NCBI GenBank assembly: GCA_963833985.1
Contig: CAWIAD010000002.1
Location: forward strand, 6,400,001 to 6,464,000
DNA from: an uncultured Planctomycetaceae bacterium
GTDB lineage: Bacteria > Planctomycetota > Planctomycetia > Isosphaerales > Isosphaeraceae
Length of the DNA stretch: 64,000 nt
Reading direction: 5' to 3'
A program made the translations under genes and the position numbers. The number at the start of each line of letters is the position of its first letter. The first letter of the stretch is position 1. Below, piece after piece: positions 3,824 to 57,159 of the stretch. Below the pieces are notes generated by a model, which did not search any database, was not told the DNA's origin, and worked only from the letters and a program-made list of their open reading frames with translations.

Positions 3824-3918
3824 CCAGTAGTTTCCGCGAAAAACCGCACAATCACGGCTTGATGCCTGCCACCCCGGTTGCTCCGGCGGCCCCACCTCGC
3901 CACCAGGCTTTTCTCGCG

Positions 3919-4030
3919 GAGAGAAAACGGGACATCTTCGGGACTCGTACGAAACCCTAAATTCAGTGACGTCCCGTCTTGGAACTCAAATTCAGTGACT
4001 TCCTATTTTGGAGCCGCTGTCCCGTTTGGG
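3919..4030. mobile_element. Empty left-end plus right-end (MITE-like) derivative of the Y1 element
   Basis: GAGAGAAAACGGGACATC (3919-3936) is followed by 3946-3981, which matches the right end 2787-2822 at 28/36 positions, then by decayed tandem copies. Confidence 0.7.
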
Positions 4031-14945: not shown

Positions 14946-15075
14946 CTTGTTCCCACGCTCTGCGTGGGGACACCGGTCGGGACGCTCGGCGTTGCCTGGA
15001 TTTCCCAGCCTCAGCACGGGACCAATCGACGCGGAGCGTCGCAGACGGCATTCCCACGCGGAGCGTGGGAACGAG
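14946..15075. repeat. REP doublet (REPIN-like), TTCCCACGCTCYGCGTGGG family
   Basis: CTTGTTCCCACGCTCTGCGTGGG...GACGCGGAGCGTC...TTCCCACGCGGAGCGTGGGAACGAG; inverted arms, each self-palindromic. Confidence 0.85.
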
Positions 15076-18915: not shown

Positions 18916-21900
18916 GCGGCTCAGCCAGCGACACGACCGCCGCCATACACTGCCGGTGATCGAGACTCTCGAAAGTCGCTGCGTGCTGAGCGGGACGAAC
19001 CTGGCCGCGTTGTCGGCGACCGCGTTGCCGACCGACCCGAGCCTGGCTCTGACCGGTCAGCTCGGAGCCGCCAGCCGCAGCGTGCTCTACCGTTTCACGA
19101 CCGACGCGGACGGGCAGGTCAAAGCCCTGGTCCAGCCGGCTGGTTTCGGGGTGCTTCTCTCTCTGCTGGACGCTGGAGGGAACGTCCTGGTGCAAAGCGA
19201 GGCAACCTCGGCCACGAACCCCAACGCCCGGATTGCCGAACACTTGCCGGCCGGTAGCTATTTCCTGTCAGTGGCTGATCGCAACGGAGCGGGTACGTTT
19301 CAGTTGAGCACCACGTTCACCCAGTCCTCGCTGCCGAACCAGCCGCTCGTCGAGGGCGAGGGGTCCCTGTCGGTGGCGACGGCCGACCTGAACGGCGATC
19401 GCATTCCCGACATGATCAACACGGACTATTACGACTGCCAGATACTCATCAATTTCGGCCTCGGGGACGGCACGTTCCAGCCGCCGGTGGCGATCCCCGT
19501 CGGCGTGTCGCCCTCGTTCGTGTTAGCGGCCGACCTGACCGGCAACGGGGTTACCGACCTGGTCGTCGCCAACGAGTCCTCGAACAACCTGACTGTACTC
19601 GTGGGCAATGGCGACGGCACGTTCCAGGCCCCGGTCACGGTTCCGACCGGCGCCGGGCCCACGAGCATCGTCGCCGGCGACTTCGAAGGCGACGGCCGCA
19701 TCGACCTGGCCGTGGCCGATACGCTCGGTAATTGCGTCGACATCTTCCATGGCAACGGTGATGGCACGTTCACCCGGATCGAGGAGCTGGCCGGGCTCAC
19801 AGGTGCATGCTCGCTGGCCGCCGGCGATTTTCAGAAGAACGGCCGCATCGACCTGGCCGTCGCACAATCGGGCCCGGGCGTGCTGACCATTCTCCAGGGG
19901 CTTGGAAATGGCAAATTCGTCGCGAGCCAGACGCTTCCGGTCGGTCCGGCTGCCTGCGGGGTGACTTCCTGCGATTTCAATGGGGACGGATGGCCCGACC
20001 TGGCCGCCCTCAGCACCACGGACGGTACGGTGGCGGTGTTTGCGAACCACGGCGGTCGGTTCACCGCCTCGGCCTCGCTGAACTCGAGCGAGGAACCTTT
20101 CGGCCTGGTTGCGGACGACTTCAGCGGCGACGGCCGCATCGACCTGGCCGCGTGCAACTCCGGCTCCAACAGCGTCTCGGTGTTTCAGGGGCTGGGCGAC
20201 GGATCCTTCCAGACGGCGGTGACGGTGCAGACAGGCGGCGGCCCGGCGGCCATCGCCGCCTGCGATTTCAACGGCGACGGCAGGCTCGACCTGGTGACCG
20301 CCGATTATACGGGAATGACCCTGTCCGTCTTGATGAACAGGGGCGACGGCACGTTCCTGTCGCCGCCCCCGACGCCGCTCTCCCTCGGTCCCGAGGGCAT
20401 AGTGGCCGTCGACCTGACCGGCAACGGCATCCTCGACCTGGTCACCCCTGACTACAACCTGAACGAGGTGTCCGTGCTCATGGGCCGGGGCGACGGCACC
20501 TTTCGCCTGCCGATCCAGGTCCCCGCGGGCGCCGGCCCACTCGATGTGGCCGTTGGAGATTTCACCGGCGACCACATTCCTGACCTGGCGGTCGCAGACA
20601 GCCTCACGGACACGGTCATGATCCTGCAAGGCCGGGGCGACGGCACGTTCTTCCCCATCAATACCCTGGCCGCGGGCGGTGCTCCCTCCTATGTGCGGGC
20701 GGCCGACCTGGACGGTGACGGCAAGCTCGACCTTGTCGTCGCCAATTACCTTTCCAACACTGTGTCTGTTTATTACGGGCTCGGTGGAGGGAAGTTCACG
20801 AGCCAGCAGGTCTATCCCGTCGGGCTCACGCCGTCGGGACTCGTGGTCGGCGACTTCAACGGCGACGGCCGTCCCGACATCGCGGTCTGCGATGCCGGCA
20901 CCAGCGACGTGGAAGTGCTGCTGGGCACGGGCAATCGCACGTTCGCGGCGCCACTCTGCTTCCCGACCGGCGCCGAGCCCTGGGCGCTCGGGGCGGCGGA
21001 CCTGAACCACGACGGCCGCATCGACCTGTTTCTGACCGATGGCGGATCGTGGCAGACCCCGTGTGTCGCGGTTCTCCTAGGCAAAGGCGATGGCACCTTC
21101 CAGACCGCGGTCCAGTACAGGGTCGGCGCCACCCCCTACCCCGTGGCGGCCGGCGACTTCAACGGCGACGGCAATCTCGATCTCATCTCGGGCAACGACG
21201 GGTCGAACGATGTCTCGCTCCTCGTGGGCCGTGGCGATGGTACCTTCGCCCCCGAAGTCCGGTTGCCGGCCGGGGAAACACCGTACGGAATCGCCGTGGG
21301 TGACTTCAACAGGGATGGGCATGCCGACTTCGCGGTTGTGAACACGCGTTCCGACGATGTCACCGTGGAACTGGGCAACGGAAGCGGCGCGTTCCAGGCC
21401 CCGATCACGCAGAGCCTGACCGCCTCGACCTACCCGACGGTGACGGCGAACTTTGACGACGACGGCAACCTGGACCTGGCAATCGCCAACCCTGACATGG
21501 GGACCGTCACGATCGAGACCGGAGACGGCAATGGCAGGTTCACCTTGAGCACGACGATCCAGACCGGCGGTCGTCCGTCCGGCCTGCTCGCGGGCGACTT
21601 CAACGGCGATGGCCGCACCGACCTGGCCATCGCCGACTCGGCACTGAACCAGATGCTGATCCTGCTGGGCAACGGCGACGGCACGTTCCAGCCGCCTCTG
21701 TCATACAATGTGGGCATCGCGCCCGGGTCGCTGGTCATGGGCAACTTCTTGGGCAGCGGTCATACGGATATCGCCGTTGCGGACGCGCGCTCCAATGACA
21801 TTGCCTTGCTCTACGGCAACGGTGACGGCACGTTTCGGGTCGGGCCGCGACTGCCGGTCGGCTCGGAGCCGGTGGCCCTGGCCGCCGCCGACCTGGCGGG

Positions 21901-24900
21901 CAACGGCCTGGACGATCTGGTCACCGCTGATCAGAGCTCGGACGACCTGACCGTCTGGTGGAACCTGGGCGCGGGACATTACCAGCGCCAGACCATCGGG
22001 ACGGGGGTTTCGCCCGCGACACTGGTTGCCGGCGACTTCTTCCAGAACGGTCGTGTCGAGCTGGCCTACACCGAAGCGGTCGGCGACCAGCTCTTCGTGG
22101 TCGCCCCCGTTGGCCCTGCCGGGTCGTGGACAACGCTCACGGTCAATCTGGGTCTGAACGCGGCGCTCCTGGCCGGCTGCGGACTGAACGCACAGGGCGC
22201 GCTGCCCGATGAACTGGCGGCCGCCGACCAGAACGGGAACGTGGTGATCGTCCGCAGCCAGAGCTGCGGCGCGTTGAGCGTTCTGCCGTCCATTCCGCTG
22301 GGGGTTCGCCCCGGCTGGCTCGCCTTCGGCGACGTCACGGGACGCGGCCGCGCCGATATGATCGCCATCAGCGTCTCCTCGGGCGCCGTCGAGGTCCTGC
22401 TCAGCCTTGGCAATGACCAGTACGCCCAGCCCCAGAGCACGGTGCCGCTACCGAACCCCGCGCCCTGGTCTTCAGGACACCCTCAGGTGGGACTGACATC
22501 GTCACGATGAATTTTCAAGGCCACGTCCGGGAGCGGAACGCCAGCGCCGCGCGCCGGGGCAGTTCAGCTCGGCCTTCGACCCCACAGCGGGCAACCCGAT
22601 TACGATCACGGGCTGGGCCGTGCTGGTGGACGGTGGAATTCCGGCGGTTGCGGTCCTCGACTCCCGGGACTCATTGATCCTGATCCTGAGGACGGACATG
22701 GAGGCGGTCGTCGCGATCATCGGGTCCATTCCCTTGCCGCCGGGCGCCGTGTACACCACGCTCGCGGCCGGCGACCTGAACCGGGACGGCCGCGACGATC
22801 TGGCCGTGGTGGACCTGGGGTCCAACCGCGTGCTGGTATTCGCCCAGGACGCAAGCGGAGGCTTTCGTCAGCAAGGCGCACCCATCGCCGTGGGTTCCGG
22901 GCCCACCGCGATCACGATTAACGAATCGACCAGGAGCGGCTGGCCGGAGATCCTCGTCTCCAACGGCTCGTCGGGCGATCTCAGCATCATCCCCGTCGGC
23001 CCGAATTTCGCGTTCGGGGCCGAGGTCCGCATCCGCGCCGGCCTGAGCCCGGCAGTCGCCGTCGCGACCGCATCGGGCTTGCAGACGACGAGCACCGACG
23101 AGCCGGTCGACGTGACGACCGGGGTCTTCGACGCCTCGAGGCTGACGAGCGTCGTCATCGTCCTGCAAGGCGCCAACAGTATCTCGGTGCTCCAGGAAAT
23201 AGCGAATGGCGGCGTGGCCGATCCCAGTCCAGCCTCTTGCTATTCGACCGGAATCGAACCCGTCCAGGCCGTCGTCGCGCCGCTGGGGAGCGATGGCTTG
23301 AACGACATTGCCGTGCTCAATGCCGGCAGCCAGGACATCTCGATCTTCATGAACGATGGGCACGGCGGCTTCGTGACGATGCCCCGGGTCGACGCCGGCA
23401 ACGACCCCACAGGGCTGGCGGTTCATGACGTGAACGGGGACGGCATCCCCGATTTGCTCGTGGGCAACAGGTTCGGCGATCTGCTCATTCTCCTGGGCAA
23501 CGGCGACGGCACGTTCCGGCCCTACGTGCGGGCGGATCCGACAGTGAGCTTGGCCGTCGGCGACCTGAACGGCGACGGCAAGCTCGCCTTCGTTTTCAGC
23601 CAGAGTGCGCAGGACGCCCTGTCGGTGAGCTACCAGGGATCCAATGCCTTCTTCGTGCAGGGCCGGAGCGAGGGAATCCTCGCGCCTGGCCCGGTACTCC
23701 TCGCCGACCTCAACGGCGACGGCGTCCCCGACCTCATTGTGGCCAACACCGGCGCGAACGACGTGCTGGTTTACCTGGGACAGGGGCACGGCCGGTTCTC
23801 CGCCCCCCTGCGCTTCTTCACCGGCATGTCTCCACTGGGCCTGACCGTGGCCGACCTGAACGGGGACGGCATCCCCGATCTGGTGGTCACCAACGAGGCC
23901 TCTGACGACCTGACGATTCTCTTTGGGCAAGGACGGGGAGCGGACTGGACGTTCGTGCCGGGACCCCGGCTGAAAGCCGGCGACCGCCCCGTATCCACCA
24001 CCGTGGCCGACCTGAGCGGAGACGGCATCCCTGACATTCTCTGCGTGGACCAGGGGAGCAACGACGTGTTGCTGCTCAAGGGTCTGGGCCGCGGCTGCTT
24101 CGACGACCGGAACCCCGTGGTCTTCCCGTCCGGCCAGGAGCCGATCCAGGCGTTCGTGGGGCGGTTCGGTTCCAGCCGGTCGGCCGGTCTGGTCATCCTC
24201 AATGCAGGCTCGAGCACGATGACTTACTACCCTGGGCCAGTTGTTCAGGGTGAGGCTGCGATCACGCTCTCCAGCGGCGGGCTCGACCCGGTTGCCGGGG
24301 TCATGGGAGACTTCGCCCAGAACGGATTCGACGACCTGGTCATTGCCAACAGCGGCGATTCCCGCCTGGCGGTCTTCATCGCCAGCGCACGGGGGCTCAT
24401 ACTCTCCAACATCGTCTCCCTTGCCGCGACCAGCCAGGTGACGGACCTGGCGATCGTGGCCAATGGAGGGGGTGGATTCGAGCTCTTCGTCAGCACCCAG
24501 AAGGCAGGGCAGGTGATCGGCGTCACGCTGATGGCAACGGGCTCGGAAGGCATCTTGCCGGGGCAGTCCGGTGTCGCAACCGCTTCAACGTGGGCCGGCT
24601 CGCTCGGCCCTGGAGCGGGTGCCTTCAGTTTCCTCGCGACGCCCGCCAGTGCCATGCTGACCGAGGAGTCTGCCCTCGGGCAGAGCCAGTCCGCCACAGC
24701 CACCGTGACCCTGTCGGAGAGTTACGTCGGCCAGATTGCAGCGACCGTCGCCACCCTCACGCAGGAACTCTTGCCCATTCTGAACGCTCCGCTCTCCTCG
24801 CTGGCGAGCTTGACAGAGAGCCTGATCCAGGTCGCGCAGCTCCAGATCTCGGATATCTTGCCGCTTGGTCAGACCGAGGCCGCCATGGTCGCGGTGCTCA

Positions 24901-28260: not shown

Positions 28261-28341
28261 CGGGGGCAGGCATTCCTGCCTGCCGGAGCAGGCCTGCCCT
28301 GGCAGACAGGAATGTCGGCAGACAGGAATGTCTGCCCCCCG
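28261..28341. repeat. REP doublet, GGGGCAGACATTCCTGTCTGCC family
   Basis: CGGGGGCAGGCATTCCTGCCTGCC ... GGCAGACAGGAATGTC (twice) TGCCCCC. Confidence 0.85.
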
Positions 28342-48779: not shown

Positions 48780-48860
48780 GGAGCACATCGCAGCAGCGGT
48801 GGGCCTGAAGCAACGTCTGCTGGAAGGGTCCGTTGCTCGGGACTGGCGCGGATCGGCCCC

Positions 48861-49313
48861 TCATGGATGCTGCCATTGCCCGGGCGCGGACGAGCCGGCT
48901 CCCGCATCGAGACGACGTATCAAGCTCTTGAATTGCTCCGCGGAGCTTGTCGCCTGAAATGCCAGCCCCGCCTCATACATCCCGCTCGTGGTCGGCTTGA
49001 CCCGCAGGATCTTCATGGCGTACCAGCGCGTCTGCACGGGCTTGACAAGCTGGACCAGGACATCCTCGTGACCTGGCATTTCGTGCAGGGCGATCAACGC
49101 ACCTCCCTGGCTGAGATTCAGGATCCGTGCGTCGATCTTGTGAATCGTCTCGCCAGCCCACCAGCCCATGAAAGCCTCGTTCGGCGCAGTGGGATAGCGA
49201 GGGTGCGCGCGGCGATCCACGCGGGCGATGGGTGAACCATCGCCAGTGACTGATTCCACTTCCGGGGGATCGAGTGAATTCGAGACCTTGAACGAGTGGT
49301 TCGAGATGAACAT
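48861..49313 (-). CDS. PilZ domain protein
   Basis: RRAHPR (RxxxR) and NLSQGG (D/NxSxxG) motifs. Confidence 0.8.
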   Translation of the reverse strand: MFISNHSFKVSNSLDPPEVESVTGDGSPIARVDRRAHPRYPTAPNEAFMGWWAGETIHKIDARILNLSQGGALIALHEMPGHEDVLVQLVKPVQTRWYAMKILRVKPTTSGMYEAGLAFQATSSAEQFKSLIRRLDAGAGSSAPGQWQHP

Positions 49314-50646
49314 GACCTTGCCGCTCCTGAGGTGTCAGTGACGGAAACCGCGGCCAGCCGAAGCCGAGGGACTCCGTAAGCTCCGGCCTCGTGGGTCCGG
49401 CCTCGTGGGACAAGATTCCAGTGCGCCGTGGAAAGGTGTTGGTCTTCAGTGGGTGTAACTCCCACCCGGCAACTGGGTCGCTCCAGCCGGTAGCTATCGG
49501 AGCGGCGGTGGAGGAGACGAAACCGTCGGAGCCTTCGAGACAGATGTGTCGCTTGGCGATGCAGCGAACCGACAGGCCGTAACGCGAGTGAACGTTGAGC
49601 AGGCCTCGAAAAGTCCAATGTGGTCGCCGACCTTGCTGGAATATGGGGAAGGCCGCCGTCGCTGGGGATGAAAGGGAAACGGTTGGAATAGGCCGCCCCA
49701 CGAGCGATCAGAACCCAGCGGGCCACCGGGGTATTGACGACGGCATGTCGGCACACGGAGATCAACACAACACGGGAAACCCCAAGCGGTGAGGGCGCGT
49801 GACCCTCAACCGGACGCCCGCGAGGGACCGGCCGGGCTGCCTGGGGTGGCGGAGAGGCCCGTAGTACCGTCGACGCCGGGTAACTCCGGTCGAGGGAAGG
49901 GGCCTTGGTTCAAGGTCAACGCAACAAGCGGCAGACAGCCGGGAGATTGGCGTGAGTCTATCACCTCCACTGAAGGTCGGGAAGTTGCAGACGGCGTTGC
50001 ACACCAAAGCGAAGAACGCGCCCAACTATCGGTTCTACGTCCTGTACGACAAGATTTATCGACGTGACGTTCTGGGATTCGCCTACGAACGCTGCCGTGC
50101 CAACGGCGGCGCGCCGGGGATCGACGGCCAGAGTTTCGCCGACATCGAGGCGTCCGGGAAGGAACGATGGCTGGACGAACTGGCGGAACAACTTCGTAAG
50201 GAGACGTATCAACCCCAGGCGGTGCGGCGCGTGTACATCCCCAAAGGGGACGGCAAGCAAAGGCCGCTGGGCATTCCTTGCATCAAGGATCGTGTGGTGC
50301 AGATGGCTGCGGTGCTGGTCTTGGAGCCGATCTTCGAGGCCGACCTGGAGCCGGAACAACACGCCTACCGCCCGGAGCGCAGCGCCCTGGACGCCGTCCG
50401 CGAAGTCGAACGGCTGCTCAAGACGGGGCACACCGAGGTGGTGGACGCGGACTTATCTGGATATTTCGATAGCATACCCCATTCCGAGTTAATGAAATCG
50501 GCGTCACGGCGCATCAGCGACGGTCGCGTCCTGCGGCTGATCAAGATGTGGCTGGAAACACCGGTGGAAGAAACCGACGGGAAGGGGCAGCGCCATCGAA
50601 CGACCCGGAATAAAGACCAGGGGATGGGTACACCGCAAGGTGCACC

Positions 50647-52665
50647 GATCACGCCCCCAACAATGTTGCAAAATCGTCCCTGATTCCTGACTCTGTCATT
50701 TCCAGATCGCGGCTTCGACCGAAGTACGGGCACGGATGGCAGCCCCGACTCGATCCCGATCCAAGGCAGGCTGGCGGCCGCGCTCTCGGAGAGGAGGAGT
50801 CGACATGATCACGTCCCCACGGAGGCCCACGTTCAGTCCTCCTGTCACCCGCCACTTCGAGTTCACTCGGCTTCAGGAGCAATTGATCGCGCGTGCATAT
50901 CAGGTCTTGATCCCGGTCGTTTCGCAGCGCCTGGATCGGCCGCGACCCAGCCGCAACCACGCGACTGTGGTCCACACTATCCAGTCCAAGGTCGGGGGGG
51001 TTTGACAAACCATGATCACGGACAATCTCCGCGTGGCGCTCTACGCCCGGGTTTCGGGGGAGCAGCAGGAGAAGGAGGACACGATCGCCAGCCAGCTCGA
51101 GGCGGTCACTCAGCGGATCGCCACTGATGGCTTGGAATGCGAGCCCGAACTGCACTTCGTGGACGACGGCGTCAGCGGTTACATCCTGGCCCGACCGGCA
51201 CTCGAGCGACTTCGGGACCAAGCCGCCGCTGGAGCCATCGACCGCCTCTATATGCTCGATCCGGATCGACTTTCACGCAAGTATGCCTATCAGGTCTTGA
51301 TCCTTGAGGAACTTATCCGGTGCGGTGTCGAGGTCGTCTTCTTGCGCAACCCCGTCGGCCGCAGTCCGGAAGCCGACCTGCTGCTTCAGGTCCAGGGAAT
51401 GATCGCGGAATACGAGCGCGCCAAGATCATGGAGCGTTGCCGCAGGGGCAAGCAACACGCCGCCCGCCGCGGTTCGGTCAACGTCCTCAGCGGCGCACCG
51501 TACGGCTACCGTTACATCGGCAAGCACGAGGGAGGTGGCGAGGCGCGTTATCAGGTCCTCGCTGAAGAGTCCCGGGTCGTGCGGAAGATCTTCGAATGGG
51601 TGGGTCAGGAACGGTGCTCGATCGGCGAGGTGTGCCGACGCCTCCGGCGCGACAGTATCCCGACGCGGACCGGGAAATCGGCCTGGGATCGCGCGACGGT
51701 CTGGTTGATCCTCAAGAACCCTGCCTACAAGGGGACCGCGGCCTTCGGCAAGACGCGCTCAGGTGAGTTCAAACCTCAACGCCTCCGCCCGCAGCGAGGC
51801 CGCCCCGAACACTCCCGGCGACCGGTCTCACGGGTTGATACATCCTCGGAAGATCAAATCTTCATTGAAGTCCCCGGGCTGGTGAGCGAAGACCTCTTCC
51901 TGGCTGTCCAGGCCCAGCTTGAAGAGAACCGGCAACGCCGTCGCGACCGGCCCGGCGGTGGCCGATATCTGCTCCAGGGCCTGGTCGTCTGCAAGCGCTG
52001 CGGCTACGGCTGCTACGGCAAGCCGACGAGCCGAGCCGCGTTCGAGGGCAAGGGTAGGGTCCGCTACGCGTACTACCGTTGCACGGGCTCTGACGCCTAT
52101 CGTTTCGGCGGGCAGCGCCTCTGCTGGAACAAGCAGATCCGCACCGATATCCTTGACGCTGCCGTCTGGGAGGACTTACGAGGTCTCCTGTCCGAGCCGG
52201 AGCGGGTCCGGGAGGAGTACGAGCGGCGGCTGCAGGGTGCCCAGGGCGGGCCGAATCAGGAGGTGGAGCATCTCGGCAAATTGATAAATAATGTGAAAAA
52301 GATGATTTCTCGATTAATCGATGCTTACGGCGACGGGTTGCTCGACAAATCGGAGTTCGAGCCCCGGATCTCGGCGGCAAGGACGCGCCTCTCGAGATTG
52401 GCGGAGGAGCATCGACAACGAATCGGCGAGGCCGCCCAAGAGGCGGAATTGCGACTGGTGATCGGTCAGTTGGAGGAGTTCGCACGTCGCGTCTCGCAAG
52501 GGTTGCAAGAGCCGGACTGGGCCACGCGACGGGAGGTGGTTCGGGCCTTGGTGAAGAAGGTCGAGATCGACGAGCAGGAGGTCCGCATCGTGTATCGGGT
52601 CAGTCCGTCCCCTTTTGAGAAAGGCCCCCAACAACGTAGTTCGCAACATTGTTGGGGGCGTGATC
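50647..52665 (+). mobile_element. 2.0-kb serine-recombinase integrative element with 23-bp perfect inverted ends
   Basis: GATCACGCCCCCAACAATGTTGC (50647-50669) and GCAACATTGTTGGGGGCGTGATC (52643-52665); GATC is present at both junctions. Confidence 0.92.
50805..51005 (+). CDS. Small (66 aa) accessory protein of the recombinase element
   Basis: Strong RBS GAGGAGGAG; 'FEFTRLQEQLIARAYQVLIP'; ends 6 nt before the recombinase ATG. Confidence 0.7.
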   Translation: MITSPRRPTFSPPVTRHFEFTRLQEQLIARAYQVLIPVVSQRLDRPRPSRNHATVVHTIQSKVGGV

Positions 52666-52886
52666 TCACCATTGTTGTCCAACATCTACATGCGACGATT
52701 TGTGAAGGGATGGAAGACTGGTGGACACGAGCGGCGTCTGGTCGCGCGAATCGTCAACTATGCGGACGACTTCGTCATCTGCTGTCGCGGCACGGCCGAA
52801 GAGGCCATGACGGTGATGCGGAAGATGATGTCCAGGCTGAAGTTAACGGTGAACGAGACCAAGACGCGGCTGTGCCACCTGCCTGA
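51012..52886 (+). CDS. Large serine recombinase (resolvase, recombinase, Zn ribbon and coiled-coil domains)
   Basis: ALYARVS (catalytic Ser), DDGVSG..L.RPALERL, DRLSR, APYGY, ILKNPAYKG, YLLQGLVVCKRCG...YYRC. Confidence 0.95.
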   Translation: MITDNLRVALYARVSGEQQEKEDTIASQLEAVTQRIATDGLECEPELHFVDDGVSGYILARPALERLRDQAAAGAIDRLYMLDPDRLSRKYAYQVLILEELIRCGVEVVFLRNPVGRSPEADLLLQVQGMIAEYERAKIMERCRRGKQHAARRGSVNVLSGAPYGYRYIGKHEGGGEARYQVLAEESRVVRKIFEWVGQERCSIGEVCRRLRRDSIPTRTGKSAWDRATVWLILKNPAYKGTAAFGKTRSGEFKPQRLRPQRGRPEHSRRPVSRVDTSSEDQIFIEVPGLVSEDLFLAVQAQLEENRQRRRDRPGGGRYLLQGLVVCKRCGYGCYGKPTSRAAFEGKGRVRYAYYRCTGSDAYRFGGQRLCWNKQIRTDILDAAVWEDLRGLLSEPERVREEYERRLQGAQGGPNQEVEHLGKLINNVKKMISRLIDAYGDGLLDKSEFEPRISAARTRLSRLAEEHRQRIGEAAQEAELRLVIGQLEEFARRVSQGLQEPDWATRREVVRALVKKVEIDEQEVRIVYRVSPSPFEKGPQQRSSQHCWGRDLTIVVQHLHATICEGMEDWWTRAASGRANRQLCGRLRHLLSRHGRRGHDGDAEDDVQAEVNGERDQDAAVPPA

Positions 52887-54205
52887 GGAGACGTTCGACT
52901 TTCTGGGTTATACCCTCGGCCGGAACTACGACCGACGAACGGGCCGATCCTACATAGGGTCACGCCCATCGCGGAAGAAGATCATTCGGCTGTGCAGCGA
53001 GATCAGTGCGATGACGACGCGCCAGACCACTGGACAGGACGTCGAGATGCAGATTGGTCGGATCAATCGCAAGTTACGCGGTTGGTCCAACTATTTTCGC
53101 ATCGGAACGGTGAGCCCAGCCTATCGCCAAGTCAACCACCACGTCCGCTACCGGGTACGTCAGTGGTTGTGTGCGAAGTTCAAGGTGCCGGGTCAGGGGC
53201 TCAGACGCTACCCTGACAGATACCTGCACCAGGAGTTGCATCTTTACCAGCTGCAACGAACCTAGCCGCGATGGTTTCGTGAGCGAACGTGTGAACTCAA
53301 CCGATGAGACAAGCCTTGTCCGAAAGCTGGATGCGGGAAAACCGCCCGTCCAGTTTGATGAGCGGGGTGTGGAAACGAGGCCCAGCCGAGCCATCGACTC
53401 GAGCCCACCGCGCCACACCTCGACTCTACGTCTTGTCACTTAAATAGATAATTGTACTTAAATCTGAAGAGACAAGATGGGAATCTTGTTCCGCGAGAGA
53501 GGCTCAAGAGTCAACGGCCGAGGCTCGGCGGCGTCACGTCAGCCAGTTCCAATGTTGTCATCTTCTTGTTCCGCATACCCGGCCACGACCATCAGCCTCT
53601 GATTGTCCCCCCTTGCCCTTGTGGGACAGGCTCCGATCAAGCGGTTTCCCTCATCATGACACTACTTCAAAACGAGGAGATTGACGAATCGCCGGGGCTC
53701 AACCGCGGGTTGAAAAGATCAACGCGGGGGACTTGTCGGTGTACGCCGCTTCATCGGATTGGGCGCTGAATACGGCCCTGAGGAAGGCCGGGTGCGCGAG
53801 CGGCGTGTCGGTTCGTCAGTGACTTTTTGTCTCGATCCTGGCAAAGGGAGCGCCGGGAAAGGCGAGGTCCAGCAAAGCGTTCGGGTTCGGGAATCGGCTC
53901 GCAGAGTGTGATCGCCTCATGCGGCGTCCCGGCTGCGTCGGCAGGGACGGCGGCCAGGCACCCGGCCGGTTTCTCCGCGAAAACCGGCAGTGACAACGAA
54001 AGCCGCATCATCCCCACAAATGACAAGGTCTTCGCTTGCAAAGCCTGGATTCATTCGGCACGATGGATTGCCAGGCAAATCAGCACTCAAGGGAAAGACG
54101 CCTGCGGCGCTCGCCGTTTGTGTACTTGAGATACGCGTCACGCCCGGTGCAAGAAGGCATTCGCAGCTTCCGCTCGACCGGGATTCCGCTTCGTGGGAGG
54201 GCTTC

Positions 54206-57159
54206 ATGAGTCGCATCGGGCTACTGGGTTGCGCCGCGGCAATGGCCGTGGCTCTGTACGTCCTTGCAAATGGCCCGGGGGCCAAGGCGCAAGAGCCGCA
54301 GCCGCCTGTGAATATTGATTTCGAGGAGGTCGTCGCGGCCGCCCGGAGCGCGGGGCGCACCGCGGGCCGTCCAGTCCGTTTCGTGATTTCAACGAGGTCA
54401 CCCGCCAGGCCGAGAAGGTGGAGGGGCTGTTCACGCTCTACAAGACGGGCGATCATCTCTACGCCGAGGTCCGTCCCGACCAGTTCAACCACCCGCTGCT
54501 CACGCCGGTGACCATCGCGCGCGGCATGGCCCAGGCGGGAATGCCCGTGGGCGACGACGACCGCGTGCTCATCTTCCGCCGCGTTGGCGACCGTGTGCAG
54601 ATCGTACAGCGGAATATCCATTACAAGGCGCCTGCCGGCACCCCCATCGAGAAGGCGGTGAAGCAGAACTACACCGATTCGGTCCTCATGGCCTTGCCCA
54701 TCGTCGCCATGAACCCGATGCGCGGCGGCGCGGTGCTATTCGATCTTTCCGACCTGTTCATGACCGATTATGCCGAGCTGGGCCTGGGCGCGATTGACCG
54801 TAGCCGCAGCCAGTGGACGAAGGTGAAAGGCTTTCAGAACAACATGGAGCTGGAGCTCGAGGCCACGTACAGCGGCGGTGGATTCCGCCGCGGGGGCATG
54901 AGCCGGGGCATGGGCGGGCCAGACCCGCGGGGCCTCACCCTGGTGCTGCATTACAGCATCATGCGGGCGCCGGGGATGGATTACCGCCCGCGCGTGGCCG
55001 ACGACCGCGTGGGCCATTTCCTGAGCGCCACCAAGGATTTCGGCCTCAACGATTCGGACACCAACTTCGTGCGTTTCATCAACCGCTGGCAGCTCAAGAA
55101 GTCTGAACACGGTGCCAGGCTTTCCCCTCCGCGGAAGCAGATCGTCTGGTACGTCGAGGACACCGTGCCCACCGAGTACCGCCCGTACGTCGAGGATGGC
55201 ATCAGTGAATGGAACAAGGCGTTCGAAAAGATCGGCTTCCGGAACGCGATCGCCGTCCGCTGGCAAGAGGAAGGGCGCGACGACTTCGATCCCGAGGACA
55301 CCAACTACTGCACGTTCCGCTGGGTGGCCAGTGAGGCGGGCTTTGCGATGTCGTGCCTGCGGGCCAACCCGATGACCGGGGAGATGATCGACGGCGACGT
55401 GATCTTCGACGCCAGCTTCATTCGGTACTGGAAGCAATCGTACGCACTCCTCATCGGCAGCACGACCACGGCGTCCGGCCAGTCCCAGGCGACCCCCCTG
55501 GCGTTCGGTGAGGTGATCAGCCCGATCCTGGCCTCGAAGATGGGCTTCGGCCAGCCGAACTCGCGCAAGCTGCTGGGCCTGAGCGCGCTCGACAGGCCCG
55601 CGGGGCAGATGGTCGCCGAGGCCGTCCCCTCGGACGAGGACTACCTCCGGTGGCAGCTTGCCAGGAACCTGGCCCGGGGCACGCGCGGCTTCTGCCAGTT
55701 CCAGACCGGCTTCCAGCACGACTTCGGCCTGGCCGCGATCGCCCTGGCCGATGCATCACGCACCGACCCCCCCAGGACGGACAAGGAAAAAGAGAAAGAC
55801 AAGGACAAGGCCCCAAAGAAGCCGGAGCCGAAAACGGAGTTGCCCGAGGAGTTCATCGGCCAGGCGATCAAGCACATCGTGATGCACGAGGTGGGCCACT
55901 CGCTGGGCCTGCGGCACAACTTCAAGGCCAGCACTATGCTCACGGCCGACCAGCTCAACGACACGTCGATCACCCGCACCAGGGGCCTGGTCGGCAGCGT
56001 GATGGACTACAGCCCCATCAACATCGCCCCCAGGGGAAAGAAGCAGGGAGATTACTACTCGACCACGCTTGGCCCCTATGACTACTGGGCCATTGAATAT
56101 GCCTACAAGCCGATCAGCGGCGACGAGGCGAGCGAGCTGAAGAAGATCGCCGCGCGGGCGCCCGAGCACGACCTGGTGTACGCGACCGACGAGGACGCTC
56201 GGCTCAATGATGATCCGTACGTCAACCGCTTCGACCTAGGCGCGGACCCGTGCCAGTTCGGCAAGGACCGCATCGCGCTGGCGAGCGAGCTGCTCAAGGA
56301 CCTGGATTCCCGCGTGGTCCGGGACGGCGAGTCGTGGTCCCGGACCCGGCGCGCCTTCGGCATCCTCATTGGCCAGTTCGGCGACGGGGCCACGCTCGCG
56401 TCGCAGTACATCGGCGGGCAGTCGGTCTCACGCGACCACAAGGCCGACAAGGACGCGCGAGACCCGATCATGCCGGTTTCGGGGGCCAAGCAGCGCGAGT
56501 GCCTGAAGTTCCTCACCGACACCATCCTCAGCGACCAGTCGTTCCAGTTCTCGCCCGTGCTGCTGCGCAGGCTGGGAGCGGAGCGGTGGATGCACTGGGG
56601 CAACGACGGCCTGAACGGTCCGGGCATCGATATCTCGGTGCTCGAGCGGATCCTGGGCATCCAGAAGATCGTGCTCAGCCACTGCCTGGGCGCGGGAACC
56701 CTGGCCCGGCTGGAGAACCAGCAGCTTCAGGCGAACGCCGGAAGCGATCCACTGCGCATGGAGGAGGTCTTCCGGGCGCTCACCGATGGCATCTGGTCCG
56801 ACCTGGACAGGCTGTCGGCGCAGAAGGATCCCAAGGTCAAGGCCGCGCTTTCCACCGTGCGCCGCAACCTCCAGCGCGAGTACCTGCGCCGGCTGGGCAT
56901 GATGGTGCTGGGTGATCGCTCGAACGGCTACAGCGACGCCTTTGGCTACCTGGTGATCACCAGCGGTGGCAGCCCGACGGTTCCGGCCGACGCCCGGGCC
57001 CTGGCTCGCCTGCACCTCAAGGAGATCAGCGGCCGCATCGGCGTGGTCCTGGAGGCCAGGAGCGCCGGACTCGACGACACCACGCGAGCCCATCTCGAGG
57101 AGTGCAGGCACCGGATCGCCAAGGTGCTGGAGGCGAACCTGGACATCCAGGAACCGTGA
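54206..57159 (+). CDS. Secreted zinc-dependent metalloprotease (DUF5117/DUF4953 type; frame break at about 54330-54415)
   Basis: Signal peptide; PRVADDRVGHF, HEVGHSLGLRHNF, SVMDY Met-turn, GPYDYWAIEYAY. Confidence 0.9.

Follow-up and report, generated by a model that had tools for sequence, protein, structure and literature searches.

A group II intron at a fixed base of a REP palindrome, with a serine-recombinase element in its reverse transcriptase gene, in an uncultured planctomycete

How does a group II intron come to lie at one and the same base of a small intergenic palindrome, locus after locus in a single genome, when most of its copies have a reverse transcriptase (RT) gene that is cut in two? 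The question is raised by a stretch of 64,000 nucleotides (the window) from an uncultured Planctomycetaceae bacterium of the Isosphaeraceae (GenBank assembly GCA_963833985.1, contig CAWIAD010000002.1, positions 6,400,001 to 6,464,000), in which a preliminary description had noted an intron inside one arm of a repetitive extragenic palindrome (REP) doublet. The reading that we favour, with a probability of about 0.72, is that the intron occupies a fixed base of the REP loop, which it likely reached by standard retrohoming through its exon-binding sites EBS1, EBS2 and EBS3, and that the form with a split RT gene has likely spread as a unit, drawing its RT from two intact copies.

As had been proposed, the locus is a three-tier nest: the REP doublet is split, in its left arm, by the intron, and the RT gene of the intron is split by a serine-recombinase element. 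Its principal features are these.

49382..49409, plus strand: tandem duplication of 14 bp, TCCGGCCTCGTGGG being present twice, at the left end of the repeat unit; a local, derived feature
49405..49420, plus strand: 5' exon, the 5' portion of the left REP arm (GTGG tag, stem and loop)
49421..53429, plus strand: group II intron, class F (g3)-like, 4009 nt with its insert (intact siblings 1994 nt)
49952..50649, plus strand: RT/maturase gene, 5' part, interrupted in the PQGAP/ISP motif upstream of YADD
50650..52662, plus strand: large-serine-recombinase element, 2013 bp, with 20-bp perfect terminal inverted repeats
52663..53265, plus strand: RT/maturase gene, 3' part, with YADD and domain X and without an endonuclease domain
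53322..53429, plus strand: domains V and VI and the intron 3' end
53430..53437, plus strand: 3' exon, the 3' stem of the left REP arm; the intron-binding site IBS3 is G 53430
53440..53470, no strand: doublet spacer, 81% A+T
53471..53497, minus strand: right REP arm, inverted; the repeat unit runs on to about 53579

The ends of the intron were set by the flanks of sibling copies; its termini are GTGCG...CTCTAC, and a GUGYG 5' end, domains I to VI and an AY 3' end are all present, with Rfam matches to D1-D4-4 (98.9 bits, 49447-49587) and D5/D6 (41.2 bits, 53322-53404). The RT/maturase lies in domain IV, and an intact sibling reaches 356 bits against TIGR04416, whose cut-off is 300; RVT_1 and GIIM are the only domains found in the two halves of the split window copy. 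The best plasmid relatives of this RT are from planctomycetes (65-68%). Joined, the exons read GTGG+GACAAGAT-TCCA and GTCTTGTC to either side of the junction, and the hairpin that had been described across them, the right arm matching the left at 23/27 positions in inverted orientation and the AT-rich spacer are all confirmed in the sequence. The window copy is placed between a minus-strand PilZ gene and plus-strand open reading frames (ORFs), and no sigma-70-type promoter was found within 48800-54500.

Pairing of the intron with its exons

The preliminary description had assigned EBS1 to a TGGAAT word at 49684-49689 and, 3' of it, a possible non-canonical second pairing to CCCACGAG at 49697-49704, naming another TGGAAT at 49637-49642 as an alternative EBS1. 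All three words are where it placed them. The features that bear on their roles are the following.

49408..49411 and 49415..49420, plus strand: IBS2 (GGAC) and IBS1 (ATTCCA), in the 5' exon
49477..49482, plus strand: alpha (GTCGCT), pairing with alpha' at 49703-49708; 236/246 cells paired, mostly invariant
49603 and 49636, plus strand: delta' and delta
49613..49616, plus strand: EBS2 (GTCC), in the canonical place 5' of EBS1, pairing with exon positions -13 to -10
49637..49642, plus strand: EBS1 (TGGAAT), in the loop of the 49626-49653 stem
49674..49708, plus strand: internal stem-loop, containing the TGGAAT of 49684-49689 and CCCACGAG
49734, plus strand: EBS3 (T), pairing with the first base of the 3' exon

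Covariation was assessed in an alignment of 41 introns, comprising the window copy and 40 of the longer matches listed; these relatives are kin, and shuffle tests therefore overstate. Across this set the word at 49637-49642 forms 209 of 246 Watson-Crick pairs with exon positions -1 to -6 (shuffled 79±9, maximum 111), with 27 different words standing at the EBS1 position. When every intron column was scanned blindly against exon positions -1 to -25, these six EBS1 pairs came out as the top six, and the stem that carries them is paired in 121/123 and 138/164 cells. For EBS2 there are 97/164 Watson-Crick pairs (shuffled 63±6, maximum 85), all four pairs forming at 13/13 sites in the genome itself, and EBS3-IBS3 is Watson-Crick in 25 of the 31 relatives with a readable 3' end, one of these ends belonging to a second intron. 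The word named as the alternative proved to be EBS1, and the order EBS2, EBS1, EBS3 is canonical, with EBS2 on the 5' side of EBS1 and not, as had been suggested, a second pairing on its 3' side.

On the same data the contrast between the candidates is clear despite kinship. The TGGAAT at 49684-49689 makes 63/240 pairs with the exon, which is chance level (shuffled 66±5), and sits in intron-internal structure. The case for CCCACGAG is better, in that it is complementary to exon positions -19 to -12 at 6-8 of 8 Watson-Crick positions at 12/13 own-genome sites and scores slightly over shuffles in relatives (122/328 against 108±6, maximum 132). The 13 own-genome sites are, however, not independent support, because they are copies of one repeat, and CCCACGAG does not follow exon changes, being kept in relatives with unrelated exons. 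It is moreover paired inside the intron: its CCC pairs with GGG at 49674-49676 (70/90, with a GC-to-CG swap in six), and its final AG starts alpha'. Burial of the complementary segments in such structure, which had been set beforehand as grounds for abandoning the scheme, is what we find for both. Covariation largely refutes the earlier scheme, which we now hold to be very improbable, and since the pairing mechanism is ordinary, the most surprising part of the earlier reading is removed. Folding the segment 49560-49760 as a single strand yielded no signal (z 0.04). The UGGAAUAG loop (49684-49691) is retained in about two thirds of relatives whatever the exon.

The repeat, its occupied copies and the targets of relatives

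The repeat has a GTGG tag, an 8-bp stem and a 4-nt loop, and so fits the definition of a REP as a GTRG tag followed by a hairpin of 6-9 bp (PMC3733652; this and the other papers are cited from the portions available). In the genome examined (10.16 Mb in two contigs, hereafter G000) 177 free REP arms, grouped in 74 clusters, were counted at up to 5 mismatches; three shuffled control words gave 1, 0 and 0 matches. Of 12 other genomes of the genus, 8 contain the REP, and it was not found in any of the 24 further genomes searched; within this set it is a genus-specific GTGG-tagged REP. Pairs of REPs flank a gene resembling those of the REP-associated tyrosine transposases (RAYTs) in genomes G009 and G001, the frame in G009 matching NF047646 at E 6e-16 and 58.6 bits, under the cut-off of 80. 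A search of G000 with one query found no close homologue of this gene (best 34%), nor was a cognate RAYT found there among seven Y1 loci, none of which is flanked by the REP.

Thirteen intron loci were mapped in G000: seven complete copies with the element forward, two with it inverted, two without it, one diverged remnant in which the same site is taken by an element 87% related, and one locus whose halves lie at both contig starts, their joining being assumed. One of the inverted copies (G) also carries a further 1.3-kb insertion in the 3' RT part (G000:C2:2147541-2148825), which resembles a transposase gene and forms a fourth tier. The proposal that the intron targets a multicopy intergenic repeat is borne out by 12 of the 13 loci, where the flanks are REP arms, the joined exon pairs depart from the REP consensus at no more than 5 positions and the junction falls on the same base. 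The exception is copy E, with 11 mismatches and 2/8 stem pairs, which is not in a REP. The REP doublet of the window also has homologues that lack the intron. Segmental duplication was rejected as the source of the copies, as flank likeness among the 12 loci compared is confined to about 60-310 bp of repeat. Orientation is with the lagging strand at 10/13 loci (±300 kb) or 8/13 (±100 kb), the GC skew being weak. REPs may have been chosen because they offer many non-coding targets. That such a target is harmless, as the preliminary description held, may be supposed from its intergenic position.

The 14-bp duplication before the insertion site is present as described; in relatives such duplications are not confined to sites that bear an intron. 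Only one TCCGGCCTCGTGGG copy is found in intron-free homologues and in sibling copies D and I, and the duplication occurs in G000 at 1/13 intron sites and 0/177 free REP arms. Duplications as scars of intron insertion were initially suggested by their frequency, counted where the end falls at most 20 bases from the junction, in 12/41 exons against 4/418 flank and 4/1500 random positions. This reading was undone by the same stacked partial duplications on intron-free repeat copies in G007, G009 and G010. In the one repeat family of relatives that was checked, stacked duplications are present in 4 of the 18 clusters printed, some extending past the insertion point, and an intron start was found in 0 of 11 regions picked for at least two motif copies. 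The duplication is likely a by-product of repeat dynamics, RAYT-driven and separate from homing. On intron-free GCTTCGCGGGGTC repeats the stacked partial duplications form ladders whose left end is constant and whose right ends vary (loci L083, at G010:C3:370592-370980, L088, L103 and L111-L121); one ladder has 13 exact copies and adjoins a Y1 transposase match at G010:C3:371092.

Six motifs, recognized by eye, recur among the relatives and terminate 23 of the 40 exons; three of them are clearly multicopy in their own hosts. Copies of the relatives' motifs number 48, 35 and 18 against 3, 0 and 1 for controls, 46 against 0 for another motif and 134 sites against 4 for another; one of the clearly multicopy motifs has only 6 copies in G020, and the sixth recurring motif was counted in G000 only. 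One motif flanks Y1 transposase genes in G000 (9 and 21 copies). About eight other relatives have AT-rich EBS1 words and AT-rich exons in which no repeat was seen, so that targeting of repeats characterizes part of the lineage and not the whole of it. In the wider lineage EBS1 has been retuned whereas EBS2 remains close to G(A/T)CC, and related introns accordingly enter other small repeats that are multicopy in their hosts. A branch with AT-rich EBS1 words such as TATATA (L053, L064-L066, L070, L072, L073, L075 and L077) lies in AT-rich DNA of GC-rich hosts.

The recombinase element and the spread of the split form

Two reading frames can be recognized in the element.

50805..51005, plus strand: small ORF, 66 aa long (89 aa when read from 50736), unmatched in Pfam and NCBIfam
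51012..52886, plus strand: large serine recombinase gene (Resolvase, Recombinase, Zn ribbon)

The element inserts precisely at an AT core, in both orientations: AT borders it on both sides (50648-49 and 52663-64), and the empty site in the element-free copies F and H, whose RT frames are intact and open (432 aa), has a single AT. The small ORF is a candidate directionality factor. The recombinase reads its tail from flanking DNA, because there is no stop inside the element, and its length varies with the flank (open frames of 575-626 aa; 603 aa with the element ends joined). Two stand-alone copies of the element are present in the genome. In relatives, all 13 readable left ends, from 16 loci, lie at the RT motif PQG-x-x/ISP (nine forward, four reversed), and the element was found in 2 of the 40 related introns. 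Large-serine-recombinase transposons with a 2-bp core are represented by Tn4451 and Tn5397 (TnpX and TndX); compared with these, the window element has 2 kb, terminal inverted repeats, no cargo and a single RT-motif target. A serine recombinase that targets intron RT genes was not found in the literature searched, as far as its available portions go. The right inverted repeat of the element is in frame with the 3' half of the RT and imitates the interrupted motif (...NIVGGV-ISPLL, 52615-53265); a TTG start there could open a 216-aa ORF that includes YADD and domain X.

In the mechanism that we propose, EBS1, EBS2 and EBS3 would pair with the REP sequence and guide standard retrohoming, the element splits the RT gene at the AT core in the PQGAP/ISP motif, and the intact copies F and H would supply RT in trans to the RT-split composites, for which driver RTs offer an analogue (PMC2882425). 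The proposal builds on the positions of the copies, the covariation of the three EBS elements with the exons, the precise insertion at the AT core and the intact frames of F and H; from these, splicing, retrohoming and the supply of RT in trans are what we infer. The simplest reading of the alleles, and one that we think somewhat favoured, is that the RT-split form spread as a 4-kb unit from one founder: position 52680 is C in all seven forward composites and the remnant, and A in the two inverted and the two empty copies.

Several observations weigh against this account of pairing and spread. Neighbouring EBS2 registers too exceed the shuffles, owing to G runs, the AT-rich-target and AGACWGTCT branches pair poorly at EBS2, and IBS1 pairs at only 4/6 positions in copies A and B and at 2/6 plus one wobble in copy I. 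The relatives' motif GGGTCAGAC is only about twice as frequent as its control, and the class tree has no class D, E or g4 reference. No exon-exon or excision joint was found in four public runs, searched as contigs and mostly of other strains (best 0.32 of words), a result that speaks neither for nor against splicing or mobility. Distal single-nucleotide polymorphisms (SNPs) are mosaic, copy K sharing 50251T with G and 53425C with F, and copy D sharing alleles with both A and W, so that recombination, conversion or assembly mixing is needed. Together with the shared flanks of B, a composite, and F, an empty copy (97% over 98 bp and 99% over 138 bp), this mosaic argues that conversion or assembly mixing also occurred, and it suits an alternative in which the intron entered the REPs intact and the element then spread by gene conversion or repeated integration, the 4-kb composite never having retrohomed. 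So does the capacity of the element to move alone, to which its stand-alone and inverted copies and its constant RT motif in relatives point. Conversion would carry along SNP 52680, 18 bp from the core, and can explain the pattern of orientation and allele; repeated integration explains it less well, since independent events at a palindromic AT core are unlikely to yield 7/7 forward on C and 2/2 inverted on A. No empty allele-C intron is present in the genome. This alternative is in our judgement a credible one with odds clearly below even.

A different alternative concerns the choice of target: the REP hairpin, extruded or nicked by a RAYT, could take part in recognition or provide single-stranded DNA or a primer to this endonuclease-less intron, in the manner of the terminator and attC hairpins used by class C introns. 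GGAC stands at exon positions -13 to -10 in 13/13 intron sites against 53/177 free REP arms, and the string GGAC-NNN-A(T/C)TCC(A/G/C) occurs 172 times in the genome, 12 times occupied, 28 times free in hairpins and 132 times free elsewhere; T-15 is present in all 12 occupied sites, and adding it leaves 22 free non-hairpin sites. Sequence therefore accounts for most of the choice of site, and copy E, which has no hairpin and yet has perfect IBS1 and IBS2, shows that the intron can do without one. Among sites that have these words together with T-15, 11/39 hairpin sites are occupied against 1/23 non-hairpin sites, a contrast that does not control for purifying selection against insertions in genes, and several relatives' targets are palindromic or adjoin Y1 transposase genes. 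This excess at hairpins is a further point against the favoured reading, and structure or selection could contribute to it. If folded, the hairpin would compete with pairing, because IBS2 and part of IBS1 lie in the stem, and the RAYT that nicking calls for has no close match in G000 by the single query above; we think a role for the hairpin unlikely.

Beyond retrohoming at the REP with RT supplied in trans, we suggest more tentatively, as something a little short of an even chance, that this is a class F lineage specialised on RAYT-associated repeats, with EBS2 kept as an anchor and EBS1 retuned, and that the RT-split 4-kb form is the main mover here, on RT borrowed from the few copies free of the element. 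If that were true, an RNA vehicle would bring a working DNA recombinase into REPs, and REP, intron and element would form a three-level dependency. A composite that retrohomes in trans would make a natural case of an intron that delivers functional DNA cargo, 2 kb of it, and would show an RT-gene parasite profiting from the mobility of its host. The lineage constitutes a natural retargeting series in a little-studied class, with many EBS1 words matched to different repeats and testable target rules.

Elsewhere in the window, a RAYT-like Y1 gene at 696-1037 (NF047646, E 3e-9, under the cut-off) has its own CGGGAC-type repeats at 552-637, 1299-1355, 1745-1782, 2769-2825 and 3916-3984; the 5' exons of related introns L054 and L074 end near a CGGGAC-type motif. 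Two more long inverted repeats of different sequence, at 14946-15075 and 28266-28319, probably represent other REP-type families. Coding repeats of about 147 bp form a long array at 19372-24340, which we take to resemble FG-GAP/VCBS repeats, and the overlap of ORFs 53990-54511 and 54418-57159 points to a frameshift in a gene for a Met-zincin (DUF5117/DUF4953).

Class of the intron and comparison with known systems

By its sequence, the intron lacks an endonuclease and appears closest, among group II introns, to class F (g3). In vitro splicing of class E and F introns has been reported without need for EBS2. The RT of the window intron is 50% identical over 431 aa to that of Ni.ha.I1 (g3), against 36% for B.th.I3 (g2) and 30% for Sr.me.I2 (g1), and domain I aligns with Ni.ha.I1, listed as g3 and class F (PMC3552965, Table S2), at the nucleotide level. 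In the RT tree, which has 10 rows, took 6 of the 11 relatives offered and has no reference from class D, E or g4, it joins Ni.ha.I1 against g1 and g2 at 99/99. With Ni.ha.I1 and D.a.I1 it shares an RT-X protein of about 430-440 aa, the lack of an endonuclease and an intact length of about 2.0 kb; the stem-loop 3' of EBS1 (49674-49708) is extra in the alignment with Ni.ha.I1, and the targets given for g3 introns in the available part of PMC3552965 are a transposase gene or non-coding DNA, not REPs.

REPs are known as targets of DNA transposons, and a retroelement with a fixed REP site, group II introns included, was not found in the literature searched (among it the available parts of PMC3552965 and PMC3522654, whose supplements could list such targets); the available text of PMC8919778 has no occurrence of 'palindrom' or 'repeat'. 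Insertion sequences (ISs) that target REPs (IS1397, IS621, ISPa11, ISPpu9/10 and ISRm19/22; PMC1525189) likewise use one fixed REP position, in a 'type 1' association; these are DNA transposons, whereas the window intron is an RNA-guided retroelement. According to the same source, 2 of 9 group II introns of P. putida lie near REPs.

The nearest parallel in mode of targeting is RmInt2 of Sinorhizobium meliloti (PMC4615759), a class D intron in the inverted repeats of ISRm17, which is also endonuclease-less, also enters a multicopy non-coding repeat via EBS1, EBS2 and EBS3, and also shows a relaxed EBS2 and a U-A EBS3 pairing. It differs in class, in having as its target the end of an IS and not a RAYT-associated REP, and in carrying, on the available account, no recombinase passenger. 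Class C and IIC-attC introns resemble the window intron in their insertion at multicopy hairpin-forming DNA (PMC7923331); there the hairpin replaces IBS2 and insertion follows it, whereas the window intron has a sequence-paired EBS2 and a 6-nt EBS1 and inserts inside the hairpin loop, and membership of class C was rejected on these features. Finally, RT-deficient copies outnumber RT-proficient ones in TeI3 of Thermosynechococcus, as they do here, and the mobilisation of RT-less introns in trans by a driver RT has been shown elsewhere (PMC2882425); in TeI3 the ORF is deleted and the intron smaller, whereas the window intron is double the length and has an intact recombinase gene inside it.

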